This document shows positions 10,743 to 51,724 of a stretch of DNA of 64,000 bases, piece by piece. The stretch is taken from assembly GCA_035289845.1 (NCBI GenBank), contig DATDWB010000027.1:621-64620 (forward strand), given 5' to 3'. The translations under genes and the position numbers were made by a program. The notes under the pieces are model-generated. The model was not told the DNA's origin and did not search any database. It was given only the letters and a program-made list of their open reading frames with translations. The DNA comes from Candidatus Nanoarchaeia archaeon. Its GTDB lineage: Archaea > Nanobdellota > Nanobdellia > Woesearchaeales > GW2011-AR9. Positions within the stretch are counted from its first letter, which is position 1; each line of letters opens with the position of its first letter.

Positions 10743-12872
10743 ATGTCTCTGAAGAAAAAGGAAAAAGGCGCCGATTGGTTTACTGTAGAAGTTGATTCAA
10801 AGGGAATCCTAACCCATTATCCTAAAGATGCCCTCCACGGATTAAAATCTATCCGGCTGCAGGTAGATTACGAGCCGGAAGCCTTGTACCTTCAGCTAAC
10901 ACAGGGGAAAAAACTTCTTAGCTCAGCAGTAGTGGATGGATCTTTCTACGAAAACTTTGCCGAACAATTACGTAAGGGGGCAGTATTAGAATTGCAAACT
11001 TCAATCGTTCAGGAGACAGAAAATGATCCGCCCATTCCTCGGCTGAAGATAAATTCTTTAAGAATTAACACCGATAAGCAATGGTATCTAACCCACCGCA
11101 CTGCTTATACCTTAGAAGATTTAACCGAGATTAAAAGAGAAATAAGACGGCGGGATGCTTATTATGATTCCTTAGCAGTTAGAGATAAAAAAAAGCAGAT
11201 TAAAATTCTTCAAAGAACGGAAAATGATCTTGATTTAGAAGATAAAATATCAGGTAAATTGGTTGAAGAACGTGGAGAGGAAGTGGAAGATGAAGATTTT
11301 AAAGAAAATGATTCTTCCACTGCCGAGGATTACATTGGGGCATTTACTTACCCAGAAATTAAACGAATTTCGCGGCAGCTGGGAATTAGACGACCCAGAT
11401 CGCCTGCCTCACCGCCCAGTCAAGGTGGGGGAAAAATGAAAAGCAATTCTGATCCACTCCAAATTGATTCTTACAGCTTAATTGAACAAGACCTGTCAAA
11501 ATCCAAAATACTCTCCAAAGAATCTGAAATTCAACTTTGTAAAAAAATAGAATCAGCCAAAAATTTAATCCAAAAATTAGGTTCAGAATTACCAATAACC
11601 CTAGCGATGTATTTCCCAAGTGAAATGCCTAAGGCCCTATCCAAATCATTAGAGTTATTGCATCAATGGAAAATTAATTATAATAATACTAATAATGGTA
11701 ATGGTATACTGGAGGAATATTTTAATTTTAAACCGTTTGATTGCGACCCTGAAAAAATTACCCAAACCGAAATGGAATTAGAATCCATTATTAAATCCTG
11801 GAAGAAGTTAGGACTGCTGGGATCGCCAATATTAGATGAAGTTTTTAAAAATACAGATCCTGAAAATGTATCTTTTTTCTCAGAAAAATATATTAGACCT
11901 TTAGGTTCGCTAAGAGCATTAGCTAAGATACCTTTTAATTCCCAAGTTAAAAAAGAATTAATCCGCTGGGCGGTGGAAAGAGGATTACAGGACTATTTGC
12001 ATAAGAAATCACCCGAAGAATCTACTTATTACAGAAAACAAGGCAATGGCTTTAGATTAAACAGCAGCTATTTTATATCTAAATATATAGAGGGTGAAGT
12101 AAATTATAATCAGTTAGTGGGAGAATTTGCCAAAGCAAATATGCGGTTAGTTAGATCTTATGTTAACCGGTTTAGTGGTTATTGCTCGGGAGCAATTGCC
12201 CTTACCGATCTTTTCCAGGAAGGCAACCTGGGTCTGCTTAGAGCCATCAAAAAGTTTGACTGGCGGAAAGGTCATAAGTTTTCAACTTATGCTACTTGGT
12301 GGATCTACCAAGGAATTAGCAAGTATGCCAAAGATAACAACAGCTCAATTAGAATTCCCTTGCATCTCCAAGATAAAATTCATAACATCAAAAAATATTA
12401 TTCTAATTTTACTCAACTATATGACCGGGAGCCTACCGCAGAAGAATTAGATCTTGAATTTCCTCCCGGCCAGCAGGGAAAGAAGTCGGGAAGTGATATT
12501 CTAAAAGAAGCCCGTTCAGCAAAAGTTTATTCTCTTAATTCAAACATCAATACCGAAGATGACAGTGAAAAATTCAAGTTAGACAAATATATAGATGGAA
12601 ATGAAGAAAACTTGGTTGGGTTCATGGCAGTTGAAAAACAGTCTGAAACACAAGTTTATGACCAAGAACTGTTAGAAAAAAATAATAGGATTATTAGCGA
12701 GGTTTTGGGTAAACGAGAAGCAGAGATAATCCGTAAACGGTTTGGGTTGTATCCCTACCAAAAGATTTATACTTTAGAAGCTATCGGAAATACTTTTGGT
12801 CTAACCCGAGAACGGATTAGGCAGCTTGAACAAATATCTATGTTAAGGTTGAAGGAAAAAATCATAAAATAA
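10743..12872 (+). CDS. sigma-70 family RNA polymerase sigma factor (RpoD-like: regions 1.2, 2, 3, 4) with long N-terminal extension
   Basis: Region 1.2 'DPLQIDSYSLIEQDLSKSKILSKESEIQLCKKIE'. Region 2 'ANMRLVRSYVNRF...LTDLFQEGNLGLLRAIKKFDWRKGHKFSTYATWWIYQGISKYAKDNNSSIRIPLHLQDKIHNIKK'. Region 4.2 HTH 'VLGKREAEIIRKRFGLYPYQKIYTLEAIGNTFGLTRERIRQLEQISMLRLKEK'. Confidence 0.8.
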   Translation: MSLKKKEKGADWFTVEVDSKGILTHYPKDALHGLKSIRLQVDYEPEALYLQLTQGKKLLSSAVVDGSFYENFAEQLRKGAVLELQTSIVQETENDPPIPRLKINSLRINTDKQWYLTHRTAYTLEDLTEIKREIRRRDAYYDSLAVRDKKKQIKILQRTENDLDLEDKISGKLVEERGEEVEDEDFKENDSSTAEDYIGAFTYPEIKRISRQLGIRRPRSPASPPSQGGGKMKSNSDPLQIDSYSLIEQDLSKSKILSKESEIQLCKKIESAKNLIQKLGSELPITLAMYFPSEMPKALSKSLELLHQWKINYNNTNNGNGILEEYFNFKPFDCDPEKITQTEMELESIIKSWKKLGLLGSPILDEVFKNTDPENVSFFSEKYIRPLGSLRALAKIPFNSQVKKELIRWAVERGLQDYLHKKSPEESTYYRKQGNGFRLNSSYFISKYIEGEVNYNQLVGEFAKANMRLVRSYVNRFSGYCSGAIALTDLFQEGNLGLLRAIKKFDWRKGHKFSTYATWWIYQGISKYAKDNNSSIRIPLHLQDKIHNIKKYYSNFTQLYDREPTAEELDLEFPPGQQGKKSGSDILKEARSAKVYSLNSNINTEDDSEKFKLDKYIDGNEENLVGFMAVEKQSETQVYDQELLEKNNRIISEVLGKREAEIIRKRFGLYPYQKIYTLEAIGNTFGLTRERIRQLEQISMLRLKEKIIK

Positions 12873-17709: not shown

Positions 17710-18061
17710 TTTAAATTCCTCCGTTTTAAAGAAAGAGTCAAATCACTAATTTCACTTAAACTTCTACCCTAAGCTAAACTGCTGGTTAAACTTTTTACTT
17801 AGCATCTCTTTTGATTGGTACCGGTGAGGTACTCTAAATGAATCGTGAAACTGCTCTTTCGGTTTAAATCTATGATTATGAAGCCCGTACTACTAACCCC
17901 CACGGTCAAAGCTTGGTACGCAAAAATCGAAGATTTTTGGCATCCTTTTCAGGACTTGGCCGTAAGCTCACGCAGGTACTCTCGCGACGGGCTAATTTAA
18001 AAATTTGAACTTCTAGTATATAAAGTATTCGGTCTAAAATTCTGGTTTGAAGATTTAAGCT

Positions 18062-18175
18062 AAAAAAAAATAAACCCAGCAGGCTCTTGCGAACCCGCCA
18101 GGGATACCCTTCCGGCCGAAGCCTTCTAGGAGACAGGAAGATTACTCCTCCTGCCTAAAAAGAGGTGGTTTTGAG
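18062..18175 (-). ncRNA. candidate small structured RNA (unassigned) ending in an oligo-T tract
   Basis: On the minus strand the locally GC-rich segment '...GGCUUCGGCC GGAAGGGUAUCCCUGGCGGGUUCGCAAGAGCCUGCUGGG' has a UUCG hairpin and ends in 'TTTATTTTTTTTT' (an archaeal terminator-like tract). It lies in the 560-nt non-coding gap upstream of dnaG. Identity unknown. Confidence 0.2.
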
Positions 18176-18277
18176 GTTTAAGTTTAAAAAATGAGGTTGA
18201 TTTATAAACCTTTTGTAATTTTTGTTACTTATAAGTGGTTTGATAAACTATTTAAATGATTAGCTTTCCGAACCTAT

Positions 18278-21643: not shown

Positions 21644-21767
21644 ATCAAATATTATTAAACCTTCTTACTACTTGATAGTTCAAAATAAAAGCAATGTCAC
21701 TTCACTGAAGCTGCTCCAGACCATCCAGACCAAAATTTATATAAATGAAACTATTTCTCAAATAAAC

Positions 21768-23492
21768 ATGACTCAAAAGACGGCCGAGGAATTAGCTAAA
21801 AAGCAGCGAGAGATTTCTATCGCTGAATTCTTTGAAAAAAACCGGCATTTGCTGGGTTTTGACAATCCCCGAAGAGCTTTATTAACCGCAATCAAGGAAG
21901 CAGTAGACAATGCCTTAGATGCCTGTGAAGAAGCCCGAATTCTGCCGGAAATTAATGTTGAAATAATCCAATTGGAAGAAACTAGGTTTAGGATGGTAGT
22001 GGAAGATAACGGACCAGGGATAATAAAAAAACAAATCCCCCGAATTTTTGCCAAATTGCTGTACGGTTCAAAATTCCACAAATTATCGGCTACTCGGGGA
22101 CAGCAAGGAATAGGAATTTCAGCCGCAGTGTTATACGGCCAGTTGACCACTGGAAAACCAGCCACTATAATTTCCAAAACTGAAGTCAATAAAAAAGCCC
22201 AGCTGGTTAAATTAAAAATTAATACTCAAATTAATGAACCACAAATAATCGAAGAAACAGAAATAGATTGGGAAAACAAAGATCATGGAACCAAAATTGA
22301 AATTGATTTTGAAGGCAGTTATAACAAAGGCCGACAATCAGTAGATGAATACCTTAAAGAAACGGCCATTGTAAACCCGCATTGTACCATCATTTTTACC
22401 AATCCGGAAGCCAACCAAATTATTTTTCCCCGGGCCAGCCCAAATCTTCCTCCTGAGCCTAAAGAAATTAAGCCTCACCCTTATGGAATAGAATTGGGAA
22501 GGTTGATCAAGATGTTAGAACTAACTGAAGCCAAGACCTTGCAGCAATTTCTAACAGATGAATTTGTACGAGTTGGACCAGGAACCGCTAAACAAATTTG
22601 TGAAAATTCAGCTCTGCTGCCTCGAACTAACCCTAAACAGATCAGCCGGGACATGGCGGAAAATTTACATAAGGGAATTAACAAAACCAAAATTATTGCC
22701 CCGCCGACGGATTGCATCTCTCCCATCGGAGATGATTTGCTGGAAAGGGGATTGAGAAAAGAAATTAACGCTGAATTTTACTGCGCAGTAACTCGGCCGG
22801 CAGCAGTTTACCGGGGAAACCCCTTTGTAATTGAAGCAGCTCTAGCTTTCGGAGGAGAACAGGAAGCAGATAAGTCCATCCGGGTAATGCGTTTTGCTAA
22901 CCGAGTTCCGTTATTATACCAACAAGGAGCCTGTGGGATTACTAAAGCCATTCAAGATACAGCCTGGAGATCGTATGGACTGCAGCAAAGTAAAAATTCC
23001 TTGCCAGTTGGCCCGTGCACTATTTTAGTTCACATGACTTCAGTTTGGGTTCCGTTTACTTCTGAATCTAAGGAAGCTTTAGCCCATTACCCAGAAATAA
23101 TTAAAGAAATACGGCTAGCTTTGCAGGAGTGCGGGCGGAAACTAGGGTCATTTGTCAATAAAAAAAGACGAATCCGAGATGAAGCTAAAAAAAGAGGTTA
23201 TATTGAGAAATATATATCCCACGTAGCCGATGCCTTAGGTGAACTTATTGGCTTAAGTGAAGCTGATAAGAAAAAAACCGAAGATGATTTATATAAAATA
23301 CTGGAATCTACCCGAGGTCAATTAGAAGAGATTAAAGTTGACAATCCTGAATATGATGCCGAAATGGCCAAAATAGGCCGGGAAGAAGAAGAATTTGAAC
23401 CAGAAAAAATTGAGTCCACCAGAAAAGCAAAAAAAGGAAAGCAAACTAAATTAGTAGATGAGGATCAATATTCAGAAGAGGAGCAGGAATAA
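21768..23492 (+). CDS. top6B: DNA topoisomerase VI subunit B
   Basis: '[39 protein letters not shown]' (Bergerat/GHKL ATPase N-terminus) and 'VEDNGPGI'. Start set to 21768 (MTQKT). About 574 aa. Confidence 0.9.
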
Positions 23493-23502
23493 ATTAACTA
23501 AA

Positions 23503-24612
23503 ATGGCAGAGTCAAAAAAAGTAGAGAAAGAAAATAAAGTTGTAATTAAGATTGTGGATATAGCGAAAGATATTTACACCAAAATTAGGAAATTGAAACG
23601 GCCGGAATTAGATATGCCTATTCGCTCACTAACCAATGTGTCCTACAATGAAAAAGATGGATTTTTCGAAGTATTAGGAAACAAAAAAACTAGGACATTA
23701 TCTGCTTCCACCATTAAAACATTTGCGCAGACTTTACGCATGATGAGTTTATCTAGGGATCTCATTAAAACAAATGACATTGCCACCAAGAGGGAGGCCT
23801 ACTATGTAAGTAAAAACTGGGGGGAAGCTAGATTCAACGAGCAGCCGGAGTCAGATACCGTAATGGATGACATTGAAGCAATGATGGGAGTCAACCGGGA
23901 ACAGATTGGATTTATTCCCGAAGAAAAAGGCGGAGCAGTGGCGGGGGAGATGATAGTTATCGACAAAGATCCGGATACTAACAAAGATTTAGAAATTGAT
24001 TGCACCAAGTTTGGATCGGGGGCCTATTCCATCCCTAGCTCAGTTGAACATTTGAAATTTAAGACTAAAGCCAAGTTTATATTAGCTATTGAAACCAGCG
24101 GTATGTTTGAACGCTTGAATAAACATAAATATTGGAAGAAAGCTAATTGCATCTTGATTTCCATGGGTGGAGTTCCCACTCGAGCTTGCCGGAGATTTAT
24201 CAGAAAATTAGCAGATGAACAAAATATACCAGTGCATGTATTTACTGACGGCGATTTTTATGGATATTTTAATATTTATCGAACTTTGAAAGTTGGATCG
24301 GGAAATGCGGCGCACATCAATGAGTTTTTCTGCGTGCCTCAAGCTCAGTTCATAGGAATAACCCCTCAAGATATAATAGATTATAAGCTGCCAACTCATC
24401 CTTTGAAAGAAGTTGATATTAAACGCGCCCGGGATGCCTTAAAAAACGATCCTTTTGTACAGCATTACAAAGAATGGCAGAAAGCGGCTGAGCAGCAGAT
24501 GAAAATGAAAGCCCGTGCGGAGCAGCAGGCGTTAGCCAAGCACGGATTAAATTTTGTGATTGACAAATATTTGCCAGATAAGATCAAGGATAAGAGAACG
24601 TGGCTGCCTTGA
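23503..24612 (+). CDS. top6A: DNA topoisomerase VI subunit A (Spo11-like)
   Basis: Winged-helix plus Toprim. '...REAYYVSKNWGEARFNEQPESD...' and 'LAIETSGMF...HVFTDGDFYGYFNI'. Immediately follows top6B. An alternative start at 23458 would overlap the top6B 3' end. Confidence 0.85.
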   Translation: MAESKKVEKENKVVIKIVDIAKDIYTKIRKLKRPELDMPIRSLTNVSYNEKDGFFEVLGNKKTRTLSASTIKTFAQTLRMMSLSRDLIKTNDIATKREAYYVSKNWGEARFNEQPESDTVMDDIEAMMGVNREQIGFIPEEKGGAVAGEMIVIDKDPDTNKDLEIDCTKFGSGAYSIPSSVEHLKFKTKAKFILAIETSGMFERLNKHKYWKKANCILISMGGVPTRACRRFIRKLADEQNIPVHVFTDGDFYGYFNIYRTLKVGSGNAAHINEFFCVPQAQFIGITPQDIIDYKLPTHPLKEVDIKRARDALKNDPFVQHYKEWQKAAEQQMKMKARAEQQALAKHGLNFVIDKYLPDKIKDKRTWLP

Positions 24613-25276: not shown

Positions 25277-25331
25277 GTTTAATTTTCTTATCAGAAATAT
25301 TTAAAAGTTAGGTGAATAATAGAACCACGAT

Positions 25332-25427
25332 GGGTCCGTAGCCTAGCCTGGATAGGGCGACAGCCTTCTAAGCTGTAGATCGGGGGTTCGAATCGGCCTA
25401 ATAACCACGAAAGTCCCCTCGGACCCA
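25332..25427 (+). tRNA. tRNA-Arg(TCT) with ~21-nt insertion (putative intron) in the T-loop/T-stem junction
   Basis: Acceptor GGGTCCG/CGGACCC, D-arm GCCTAGCCTGGATAGGGC, anticodon stem ACAGC/GCTGT with loop CTTCTAA, T-stem GGGGG + TTCGAAT. Then 'CGGCCTAATAACCACGAAAGT' intervenes before the 3' T-stem CCCCT. A/T-rich box ~25 nt upstream and an oligo-T tract downstream. Confidence 0.75.
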
Positions 25428-25492
25428 TTTTTATTTGATCTTTCCTTTCATTCGGAAACTTTTTAAAGCAGATAGGTTTCGATCACTACTAT

Positions 25493-25625
25493 GCGCCCGT
25501 CGCCAAGCGGCTAAGGCAATCGCCTGCAGATCGGCTAGTATCAGCCTTTATCGGCCATAACTAGGAGACAGCGATTATACGAGGGTTCGAGCTGTGCTTA
25601 GTACACGAAATTCCCTCCGGGCGCT
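25493..25625 (+). tRNA. tRNA-Cys(GCA) with two putative introns (~40 nt at 37/38 and ~20 nt in the T-loop)
   Basis: Acceptor GCGCCCG/CGGGCGC, D-arm GCCAAGCGGCTAAGGC, anticodon stem ATCGC/GCGAT with loop CTGCAG|...|A interrupted by ~40 nt. T-stem GAGGG + TTCGAGC, then 'TGTGCTTAGTACACGAAAT', then CCCTC. TATA-like 'TTTTTAAAG' upstream, oligo-T downstream. Confidence 0.7.
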
Positions 25626-25688
25626 TTATTTTCTTAATTACCTTAAAGTAAATAAATTTTATAATAATTTTTCCACTTCTTCTAATAA

Positions 25689-42647: not shown

Positions 42648-45113
42648 CTAAACTAATTCTTCCGGACCGTCCGGAGGTGCATCTTCCTCGATCAATATTT
42701 TAGCCGAAGCAGCCAACTGGTCAGCATCATTCAAGCGCATTACTCTTACACCCTGGGTAGATCTTCCAATAAGTGAAATATCTGAACTTTTAATTCTTAT
42801 CCCAATACCCTGCTTAGATACCAGCATTACTTCCTCGTTTCCGTCAACTAACATGACCGCTTTAACCAACCCATTTTTATCCGTTATCTTAATGTTAGTT
42901 ACTCCTTTACCCCCCCGATTGCACAATCTATAATCGGCTACCGGAGTTCGTTTTCCATAACCCTTTTCAGTTAAGGTTAAAATGTTTTTAGTTTCGTCCG
43001 CGGCTAACATCCCAATAACTTTATCGCCTTCACTTAATCTTATTCCCCTAACTCCCCTAGCCGTTCGGCCCATAACCCTAACTGCACTTTCCCTAAATCT
43101 ATTAGCCTGGCCTTCTCGAGTGGCCAAAATTATTTCCTTGCTGCCATCCGTATATAAAACATTAACTAGATGATCATCATCTAATGTTATAGCGCGTATA
43201 CCGCCGCTTCTGGGACGAGAAAAGTCCATTAACTCGGTTTTTTTTACTGTTCCATTCTCAGTAGCCATGAATAAATATCCTTCCGCAAAATCACGCACTG
43301 GAATTATAGCATTAATCTTCTCTTCCGGCCGTAACTCTAAAATATTGGCCAGATGTTTTCCTTTACCCTGCCGAGTAGATTCGGGGATTTGATAAACCTT
43401 TAACCAATAAACCTGCCCAATATCAGTAAAGCATAATAAATAAGCGTGGGTGGAAGTAATATACAATTGTTCAATAAAATCTTCATCTTTCATCCCAGCA
43501 GCAATAACTCCCTTACCCCCTCTTTTCTGAGTTTTATAGGTGTCAATCGGTAGGCGTTTAACATACCCAGAATTAGTCATAGTAACTACCACAGTATGTT
43601 CTTCAATTAATTCTTCCAGATCTACCTCTTCATCTTCCCCGGGAACTAACTGCGATCGCCTCTCATCACCATAATTAGTTTTAATATCTTCCAATTCTTC
43701 TTTTATTAATTGTTTAACTAATTCATCTGAGGATAAGATTTGACGGTAATAAACTATTTTTTCTAAGAGCTCGGTATGTTCGGACCTAATTTTTTCCTGC
43801 TCTAAGGAAGCTAACTTTTGCAACCTTAAATCCAAGATAGCTTTAGCCTGCAGATCGGATAGGGGATAATTATTCATCAAAAATTCTTTGGCATCTTCAA
43901 CTGTCCGGCTATTTCTTATTCCGGGAATAACTTGATCTAAATTATTAAGAGCAATGAGCAAACCTTCCAAGATATGGACCCTATTTTCAGCCTGGTTAAG
44001 GTCGTACTTAGTTCGACGAAGAATTATTTCAGTACGGTGGGTAATATGATAATTTAAGAAGTCTTTCAATCCGACTACCACCGGCTGATTATCTACCAGC
44101 GCCAGCATGTTGATACCAAAAGAAACTTTTAACCGGCTGTGTTTATAGAGCTGATTTAATATTACATTGCCATCAGTATCCCGCTTCAAATCTATAACCA
44201 CTCTTATCCCATCTTGATCTGATTCATCGTTAATGTTCCTAATCCCACTTATAACCTTATCCCGAACTAAATCAGCTATCTGTCCAATCAATTCCTCCTT
44301 ATTTACCTGATAGGGTATCTCAGAAATTATTATCTGTTCATCCTTAACTTGACAAACTGATTTGATGGAAACCTTCCCCTTCCCAGTAACGTAAGCCTGC
44401 AGCAAGGAATTACCAGTAGAAACAATGCCCCCAGTAGGGAAATCGGGAGCAGGGAGTATGCTCATAAGTTCATTAATTGTAATTTGCGGATTATTAATGG
44501 AAGCAATTAGGGCGTTGCATACTTCTAGGACATTATGAGGAGGAATATTAGTGGCCATCCCCACCGCAATGCCTGAAGAACCGTTGACCAATAAATTAGG
44601 CAGTTTGGAAGGTAAAACTTCCGGTTCTTTCAAAGAAGCATCGAAATTGTCCCTAAAATTAACCGTTTCTTTCTCAATGTCTTTAAGCATCTCTTCAGCC
44701 AATTTACTTAACTTAGCTTCGGTATACCGCATAGCCGCAGCGGAATCACCATCGATACTGCCAAAATTGCCCTGCCCCTTAATTAGAGGATACCGCAGAG
44801 AGAAATCCTGAGCCATCCGAACTAAAGAATCATAGACTGCTGTATCTCCATGAGGATGGTATTTACCCAAAACTTCCCCCACTATCCGAGCACTTTTCTT
44901 GAAGGGCTTATTATGAAACATTCCCAGATCGTACATAGAATACATAATTCGCCGGTGAACTGGTTTAAGGCCATCTCTAATATCCGGCAGAGCCCGGCCC
45001 ACAATGACCGACATGGCATAATTTACATAGGCGGTCTTCATCTCCTCCTCAATTACTCTAGGGACTACCCGAGGAGTATTGGGCAAGGGCTGATTGGTGT
45101 CGGATGGATCCAT
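42648..45113 (-). CDS. gyrA: DNA gyrase subunit A
   Basis: '[33 protein letters not shown]', '[63 protein letters not shown]' (active-site Tyr region), and C-terminal beta-pinwheel repeats. Confidence 0.9.
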
Positions 45114-51159: not shown

Positions 51160-51231
51160 GCTATAAACCCTTAATTTTTCCAATAATTTTATAAAAGATG
51201 TTCTTAGACTAAAAGTAGCTCCACATTTCAT

Positions 51232-51432
51232 GTGCGCGTGCCGGAGTGGTCAAACGGGACGGTTCGTTTGGCATGTAGGTGCTAATATGAGTCCAGACTC
51301 AAGTCGTTAGGGCAATGAGGTTTCCATAAGAAATCGGTGAAGTGTCCGGGAGCCATCCGTTGGTTTAGTACCTACGCAGGTTCGAACGCCAGTATCCTTA
51401 AGTGATCTGGATCGAAAGCCCTGCCGCGCACA
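51232..51432 (+). tRNA. intron-rich tRNA gene (~201 nt), identity unresolved: tRNA ends with ~32-nt T-loop insertion plus a large internal insertion
   Basis: Acceptor GTGCGCG/CGCGCAC plus discriminator A. D-arm CCG-GAGTGGTCAAA-CGG. T-stem GCAGG + TTCGAAC, then 'GCCAGTATCCTTAAGTGATCTGGATCGAAAGC', then CCTGC. Possible extra arm GGT-TTAGT-ACC. About 90 extra nt in the anticodon region. Followed by 'TTTTTATTTTT'. Confidence 0.5.
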
Positions 51433-51724
51433 TTTTTATTTTTGCTTCAACGGAGATATTTAAGGCAAGATATTATTTTTTGTTTAAAATAGATGATGGT
51501 AAAATAAACATAAAACCTACTTGGTATAAGGTAAGTTATTCTTTGGGGATGTAGGCAAGGATCAAATAGTAAGAAAAATTAGGTTGTGATTACCCACCTC
51601 AAGATAAAGTAGAAGGCCTAGCTAGCTTAGAATGGATTATTAGGATTACCCCAAAAGGAAGGAGTACCAGATTAAATTCTTCCAAAACCACATCTTTTTT
51701 AAAGGCAATTACTTTCCCTATCCC

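Follow-up and report, generated by a model that had tools for sequence, protein, structure and literature searches.

Probable functional tRNA genes interrupted by T-loop introns in a Woesearchaeota (DPANN) archaeon

Here, we analyzed a 64-kb stretch of DNA (hereafter the window) that carries two adjacent interrupted tRNA genes on its plus strand, tRNA-Arg(TCT) at 25332-25427 (96 nt) and tRNA-Cys(GCA) at 25493-25625 (133 nt). Very probably, both genes are functional, contain introns and belong to a Woesearchaeota (DPANN) archaeon. Both are interrupted between positions 59 and 60, in the T-loop, by a short insert whose 3′ end is complementary to the T-loop itself and forms with it the central helix of a bulge-helix-bulge (BHB) motif, and the Cys gene is interrupted a second time at the canonical 37/38 site. 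The exon/intron architecture of the pair recurs in related genomes, where the BHB helix covaries, the upstream promoter motifs are conserved and individual introns are present in some relatives and absent from others. An initial annotation of the sequence had proposed an adjacent Arg/Cys pair that folds into cloverleaves only once the T-loop inserts are removed, with a further insert of ~40 nt at 37/38 in the Cys gene, and our analysis agrees with it on each of these points.

The raw genes escape standard gene finders. In the unedited window, ARAGORN made no tRNA call and Rfam made none at gathering thresholds; in permissive mode, the sole relevant Rfam match on the raw sequence was a partial tRNA at 25339-25398 (27.1 bits vs. 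a threshold of 29), spanning model positions 8-63 and stopping within the Arg T-loop. Since neither program calls a tRNA and the permissive match is only partial, the raw sequence contains no canonical cloverleaf. When 21 nt (25393-25413) were deleted in silico, ARAGORN called a 75-nt tRNA-Arg(tct), and deletion of 25592-25611 (20 nt) together with 25530-25569 (40 nt) gave a call of tRNA-Cys(gca). A structure-aware scan that required a T-arm and a 7-bp acceptor stem, with an optional 59/60 BHB insert, regained both genes in the window and added a third, tRNA-Leu(CAA), at 51232-51432; a relaxed tRNA scan of all intergenic regions of the window returned only noise besides these three. All three genes are disrupted, all carry a 59/60 intron, and ARAGORN recognizes each only after in silico splicing, when the stems are perfect and the discriminators are as expected (U73 for Cys, A73 for Leu). 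With the inserts left in place no cloverleaf was found, and BHB-like structures form at the proposed junctions, of which only one of the six in the window is strict.

In the Arg gene, exon 1 (positions 1-59) occupies 25332-25392, as judged by in silico splicing with ARAGORN and by the partial Rfam match, and is followed by the 21-nt intron at 25393-25413 and by exon 2 (positions 60-73) at 25414-25427, which ends in discriminator A with no encoded CCA. At the 59/60 junction, a T-stem of 5 bp stacks on a central helix in which all four UUCG:CGAA pairs form, AG|U as the 3′ bulge, and a 5′ site that falls within a loop. We modeled this junction as a relaxed hBH (bulge-helix-loop) motif with no inner helix. 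The minimum-free-energy fold of the insert is no better than that of shuffled sequences (z = -0.07); its assignment as an intron draws on in silico splicing, folding, BHB scoring and the orthologues described below. Cutting after the second bulge nucleotide leaves a 7-nt mature T-loop, UUCGAAU.

The Cys gene consists of exon 1 (positions 1-37, 25493-25529), a 40-nt intron at 37/38 (25530-25569), exon 2 (positions 38-59, 25570-25591), a 20-nt intron at 59/60 (25592-25611) and exon 3 (positions 60-73, 25612-25625), which ends in discriminator U. The exons were placed by in silico splicing, with support from orthologues for the first two, and the introns by folding and BHB scoring, with in silico splicing for the first. 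The initial annotation was right that a T-loop insert is present in this gene and one nucleotide short on its length, which it quoted as 19 nt. At 59/60, the minimum-free-energy fold is exactly a strict hBHBh′ (3-4-3) motif, in which the 4-bp UUCG:CGAA helix sits between 3-nt bulges (AG|C and AU|U), flanked by the 5-bp T-stem on one side and a 5-bp inner helix on the other, and cutting after the second bulge nucleotide gives a 7-nt mature T-loop, UUCGAGU. The 37/38 junction is looser. It has the anticodon stem, a 3′ bulge of AC|A and three of the four central pairs, with G34 mismatched, and no inner helix forms in register; it is modeled as a relaxed BHB, a geometry also found in 14 of 14 orthologues with this intron. 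The sequence of the 37/38 intron is conserved in relatives L001, L003, L005, L018, L021, L042, and L068, where it takes the form GAUGA-hairpin-GAUGA with kink-turn geometry (GA 5′ of the stem, then the stem, GAU, and GA on the other strand) and a stem that shows compensatory changes. This arrangement suggests a putative L7Ae-type binding site in the relatives' intron. The window's own copy (25530-25569) has lost the GAUGA arrangement and instead carries UAUCA and CAUAA flanked by a CUAG/CUAG helix.

The third gene, tRNA-Leu(CAA), lies on the plus strand as well and holds three introns, of 34 nt at 30/31 (51263-51296), 51 nt at 37/38 (51304-51354) and 32 nt at 59/60 (51387-51418), with a TATA-like box at 51187-51197 and a T-tract at 51433-51443. 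It was found by the structural scan, and its introns were resolved by combining BHB-constrained candidates with the features of class II tRNAs. The spliced product is an 84-nt canonical class II tRNA with A73 that ARAGORN calls tRNA-Leu(caa), and the raw gene at 51232-51432 is invisible to both ARAGORN and Rfam. Deleting every possible segment of this gene and running ARAGORN in intron mode proved too permissive, yielding thousands of mutually contradictory calls (Gly, Arg, Leu, among others), and was abandoned.

Sequence alone leaves the splice registers ambiguous by 1 nt. Both T-loop inserts of the Arg/Cys pair are placed at 59/60 because the BHB geometry, with cleavage after the second bulge nucleotide and 7-nt T-loops, fixes the register; the resulting junctions are strict for Cys 59/60 and relaxed for Arg 59/60 and Cys 37/38. 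The same geometry accounts for the motif ACGAAA(G)Y, which the initial annotation had correctly picked out at the ends of the inserts. In both genes, the 4-bp central helix is formed between UUCG of the T-loop and CGAA at the 3′ end of the insert. The inserts have ACGAAA in common because their 3′ ends complement the conserved T-loop and run on into the 3′ bulge, and the motif carries no independent signal.

The most informative evidence comes from orthologues. Using Top6A, encoded close to the pair, as an anchor, we collected 80 loci with 69-85% protein identity to the window's Top6A, in many of which Arg(TCT) and Cys(GCA) orthologues lie downstream of Top6A. These were rebuilt by spliced alignment guided solely by exon identity, and the spliced products were validated with ARAGORN. 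Clean reconstructions of 39 Arg(TCT) genes contained no intron in 2 cases, one in 20, two in 13, and three in 4; the 28 Cys(GCA) genes contained none in 13 cases, one in 6, two in 8, and three in 1. Entries flagged for checking are left out of these counts, and the Arg tallies include one artefact, a 170-nt alignment jump in L007. That jump and a set of terminal "introns" after positions 64-70 in the first spliced alignment were spurious, because the reference 3′ acceptor strand differs between orthologues; a second alignment used each gene's own acceptor complement, and the L007 jump remained. Uninterrupted orthologues, which ARAGORN detects normally, served as a positive control. Inserts recur in the D-loop and at 28/29, 37/38, 42/43, and 59/60, and the same BHB geometry fits those in the D-loop and at 28/29 and 37/38. 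A strict scan of 1.33 Mb, comprising the window and the loci of the 80 relatives, found 82 tRNA-like genes, 33 of them (~40%) with a 59/60 insert, compared to a single 59/60 insert in the reversed-sequence control.

In nearly all orthologues, the BHB geometry agrees with the exon-alignment boundaries at shift 0. A full four-pair central helix was present in 23 of 24 inserts at 59/60 (15 of 16 Arg and all 8 Cys), while shuffled introns gave means of 0.4-0.7 with a maximum of 3, or about one expected overall. The T-stem was in register with at least 4 of its 5 bp in 23 of the 24 inserts, and with all five in 22. T-loop UUCG is paired with intron CGAA in 12 cases and with UGAA in 2, and T-loop UUCA with UGAA in 8 and with UGGA in 1, so that the central helix has undergone a G:C to A:U compensatory change among orthologues. 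In an independent pair count run on fixed-length junction sequences, 98.8% of cells were paired, a value matched by none of 500 shuffles; sliding the partner one column either way reduced pairing to 63-68%, indicating that the register is exact. The pair between position 57 and intron position -6 was GC in 10 cases, AU in 6, and GU in 2, and it tracks the T-loop sequence. The helices are thus kept by compensatory change, and the introns are otherwise free in sequence and length. Among the tRNA-Arg 59/60 introns, those of 71-82 nt (in L001, L002, L023, L035, and L042) fall into two sequence families, one of the form CAGATGTCACG..CATCTGAGAG.. and the other ..CTACACTAGGCGA..CAGGTGG.., both with long internal hairpins and each common to different genomes; such sharing suggests either shared descent or intron transfer.

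Three other explanations for the inserts were weighed against this evidence. It is conceivable that the genes are decaying tRNA pseudogenes with T-arms disrupted by insertion, the functional copies being located elsewhere. Standard detectors do fail on the raw genes, and since our analysis covers the window and the relatives' loci, intact paralogues could lie elsewhere in the genome. Against this, once the inserts are removed the stems are perfect and the identity elements intact, and promoters and terminators are conserved. Moreover, the exons are >90% conserved across 80 genomes while the inserts vary freely; the inserts follow BHB geometry, with compensatory change, in dozens of genomes; and the same pattern occurs in all three tRNA genes of the window. 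We therefore regard decay as very unlikely. It is slightly less probable again that the T-loop inserts escape excision and give the mature tRNA an additional arm or a larger T-loop. Excision is deduced here from genomic sequence, which leaves some room for this idea, but orthologous 59/60 inserts range from 13 to 82 nt with little common sequence and are missing altogether from some orthologues. Such a range cannot be reconciled with any conserved structural function at the T-loop/D-loop elbow, and conservation within the insert is confined to the segment that presents the two cleavage sites. The least probable explanation, and one that is strongly disfavored, is that the BHB-like pairing and the ACGAAA motif arose by chance in AT-rich inserts of some other origin, such as mobile-element scars; it could appeal to the relaxed Arg motif, with its fold no better than shuffles, but is contradicted by the near-universal four-pair helix compared to about one in shuffled introns, by the exact register in the slide control and by the covariation of position 57 with intron position -6. 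The type proposed in the initial annotation, archaeal non-canonical T-loop introns such as occur in Thermoproteales and DPANN, is supported by the DPANN host, the BHB geometry and the compensatory changes in orthologues.

Two classes of interrupted gene can be set aside. Split or permuted genes are ruled out, as the exons are collinear within 96, 133, and 201 nt and run from one promoter to one T-tract. Self-splicing group I and group II introns, which have a catalytic core of hundreds of nucleotides that is recognizable by covariance models, are likewise ruled out, as the inserts are 20-51 nt in length and have no Rfam match.

The pair also carries its own expression signals, as the initial annotation had noted for both the A/T-box promoters and the downstream oligo-T. 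A BRE/TATA-like promoter (gaaatatttaaaag) is predicted at 25294-25307 for tRNA-Arg, centered ~30 nt upstream of the mature 5′ end, and another (ggaaactttttaaag) at 25454-25468 for tRNA-Cys, at a similar distance of ~30 nt. The T-tract tttttatttg at 25428-25437 after tRNA-Arg is a likely archaeal transcription terminator, and a T-rich tract follows tRNA-Cys at 25626-25636. Most Arg orthologues have gaaatatttaaaagtt at a constant distance upstream and Cys orthologues have the related motif gaaaactatataaata; both lie ~25-35 nt upstream of the mature 5′ end, T-tracts follow most genes, and CCA is not encoded. We take these upstream motifs as conserved archaeal BRE/TATA-type promoters with short leaders.

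A repeat 5′ of the Arg acceptor stem, also reported in the initial annotation, is real: AACCACGA occurs at 25323-25330 and again at 25403-25410, is specific to the window, and is only borderline significant. In extended form, the Arg 5′ leader TAATAGAACCACGA (25318-25331) and the Arg 59/60 intron TAATAACCACGA (25400-25411) have 12 nt in common with one 2-nt gap, TAATA(GA)ACCACGA, for which the shuffle p of ~0.002 is borderline after multiple testing. Of 25 genes, one alone had such a leader/intron repeat, mismatched leader/intron pairs scored equally well, and it was not conserved in relatives; on these grounds, we rejected AACCACGA as a functional element. The identity between leader and intron may be due to chance or may be the trace of a local duplication.

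We propose the following route from gene to mature tRNA, in which the enzymes and the steps of cleavage and ligation are taken by analogy from established archaeal tRNA splicing. A dedicated BRE/TATA promoter would drive each gene, giving a transcript with a short leader. In the precursor, the YGAA at the 3′ end of the insert would pair with the universally conserved UUCR of the T-loop, creating a 4-bp BHB central helix stacked on the T-stem. EndA would then cut once in each bulge, 3′ of nucleotide 59 and immediately 5′ of nucleotide 60, and an RtcB-type ligase would join the exons. The Cys 37/38 intron would be excised likewise, and because no CCA is encoded, CCA would be added post-transcriptionally. 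Since relaxed BHBs make up most of the junctions, the EndA of this lineage is predicted to have broad specificity; a strict-specificity α4 EndA is not expected to cut Arg 59/60 or Cys 37/38. Pfam scanning gave no tRNA_int_endo or RtcB match among the ~66 ORFs of the window, and a regular expression for the EndA catalytic core had no match in the window or the 80 flanking loci.

Gene content points to a DPANN (Woesearchaeota) archaeon as the host. In Pfam scans of the window ORFs, the neighbors of the tRNA pair were topoisomerase VI subunits B and A, a cyclophilin, an NFACT protein and a class I tRNA synthetase of the W/Y family, and eIF-1A, PCNA, Hef, RIO kinase, and ThiI were found among the other ORFs. 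The host is assigned to archaea, and to DPANN, because topoisomerase VI A/B, eIF-1A, PCNA, and Hef are encoded and the closest loci are Woesearchaeota and Nanoarchaeota MAGs; all informatively titled Top6A loci belong to MAGs of Woesearchaeota, Nanoarchaeota, or Nanobdellota. Genome GC is ~37%, and 25280-25640 contains two GC-rich blocks. The 412-nt Arg-Cys region is 100% identical in four independently assembled contigs, so its structure is not an assembly artefact. The window has other features of note. It encodes a bacterial-type DNA gyrase A subunit (42648-45113, minus strand) as well as archaeal topoisomerase VI A and B (21672-24612, plus strand). The C-terminal third of a 709-aa ORF at 10743-12872 (plus strand) matches two Pfam Sigma70 domains, region 2 with E = 3.5e-15 and region 4 with E = 8e-9, making this a bacterial-type sigma-factor-like protein within an archaeal genome. 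On the minus strand at 18068-18175, inside the intergenic region 17710-18277, a GC-rich segment forms two long hairpins of 11 and 12 bp (z = -3.85 vs. shuffles), with a U-tract after it and a TATA-like box upstream on the same strand. It had no significant Rfam family in permissive mode and could represent either a gene for a small RNA or a strong terminator. Finally, the most GC-rich island of the window, which peaks at 0.66 over 70 nt, lies in the intergenic segment 32862-32960 and includes a perfect CGCAGC/GCUGCG hairpin; permissive Rfam searches gave no significant match there, and it folds no better than shuffles on either strand.

The value of these loci is practical and evolutionary rather than conceptual. 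For annotation, all three tRNA genes in 64 kb are invisible to ARAGORN and Rfam, which is relevant to the "missing" tRNAs of DPANN. In 208 complete Nanobdellota genomes, the median tRNA count was 35 and fewer than half of the genomes had a full set; the gaps were attributed to possible split tRNAs (bioRxiv 10.64898/2026.05.13.725050). Collinear multi-intron genes, including those with T-loop introns, are an alternative to check before tRNA loss, split genes or host dependence is inferred. For evolution, the orthologue series, with 0-3 introns at six or more positions in genomes whose Top6A proteins are 69-85% identical to that of the window, offers a natural data set for intron gain and loss outside Thermoproteales. 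A wider reading, which we hold only tentatively and think rather unlikely as a whole, is that 59/60 is a lineage-wide hotspot in Woesearchaeales populated by portable introns, and that these, rather than split tRNAs, explain most of the "missing" tRNAs of Nanobdellota. Its basis is the 59/60 intron in all three tRNA genes of the window and in ~40% of tRNA-like genes in relatives. Under such a reading, the hotspot would owe its existence to the T-loop UUCR, which is universal and supplies the exon-side strand of the BHB, and an insert ending in YGAA-NN could be spliced in any tRNA, so that introns would be unusually portable between genes. More speculatively still, the 12-nt identity of the Arg leader and intron might be a trace of intron origin, through local duplication or through fusion of a formerly split gene.

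The phenomenon itself has already been described in related archaea, and the present loci are new instances of it. The closest precedent is the pre-tRNA-Cys(GCA) of ARMAN-2 (Ca. Micrarchaeum), which has a 13-nt hBH intron at 59/60 that was cleaved in vitro by the cognate ε2 (three-unit) endonuclease, in a study that also describes a tRNA-Pro with two T-loop introns (Fujishima et al., 2011; PMC3239211). Both organisms are DPANN, the tRNA and the site are the same, and the relaxed hBH/BHL of ARMAN-2 resembles that of the Arg gene in the window. The two differ in lineage (Micrarchaeota vs. Woesearchaeota) and in the endonuclease, which is ε2 in ARMAN-2, while the literature suggests an α4 enzyme with an L3 loop for other DPANN; furthermore, the Cys 59/60 junction in the window is a strict hBHBh′, and the gene also has a 37/38 intron. 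Increased tRNA gene disruption was reported together with L3-loop EndA in DPANN, including one Woesearchaeota genome, with the explicit statement that some disrupted tRNA genes still go undetected (Kaneta et al., 2018; PMC5829648). The three genes of the window are concrete examples of such genes, while the loci themselves, the prevalence of 59/60 inserts (33 of 82) and the turnover among orthologues come from the present analysis. In Thermoproteales, tRNA genes have up to three introns each (Sugahara et al., 2008, as reviewed in PMC4033280), and it has been hypothesized that tRNA disruption impedes the integration of mobile elements (PMC4033280). Like the genes described here, theirs carry as many as three introns, use non-canonical positions and relaxed BHBs, and show rapid intron turnover. 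However, Thermoproteales are Crenarchaeota and thermophiles with GC-rich genomes and an (αβ)2 EndA bearing a crenarchaeal loop, whereas the host here has a ~37% GC, DPANN symbiont-type genome. Lastly, the split and permuted tRNA genes of Nanoarchaeum equitans and Caldivirga, to which "missing" tRNAs of Nanobdellota genomes are usually ascribed (bioRxiv 10.64898/2026.05.13.725050), follow the same BHB/EndA logic, but the exons described here are collinear and contiguous within one transcription unit.
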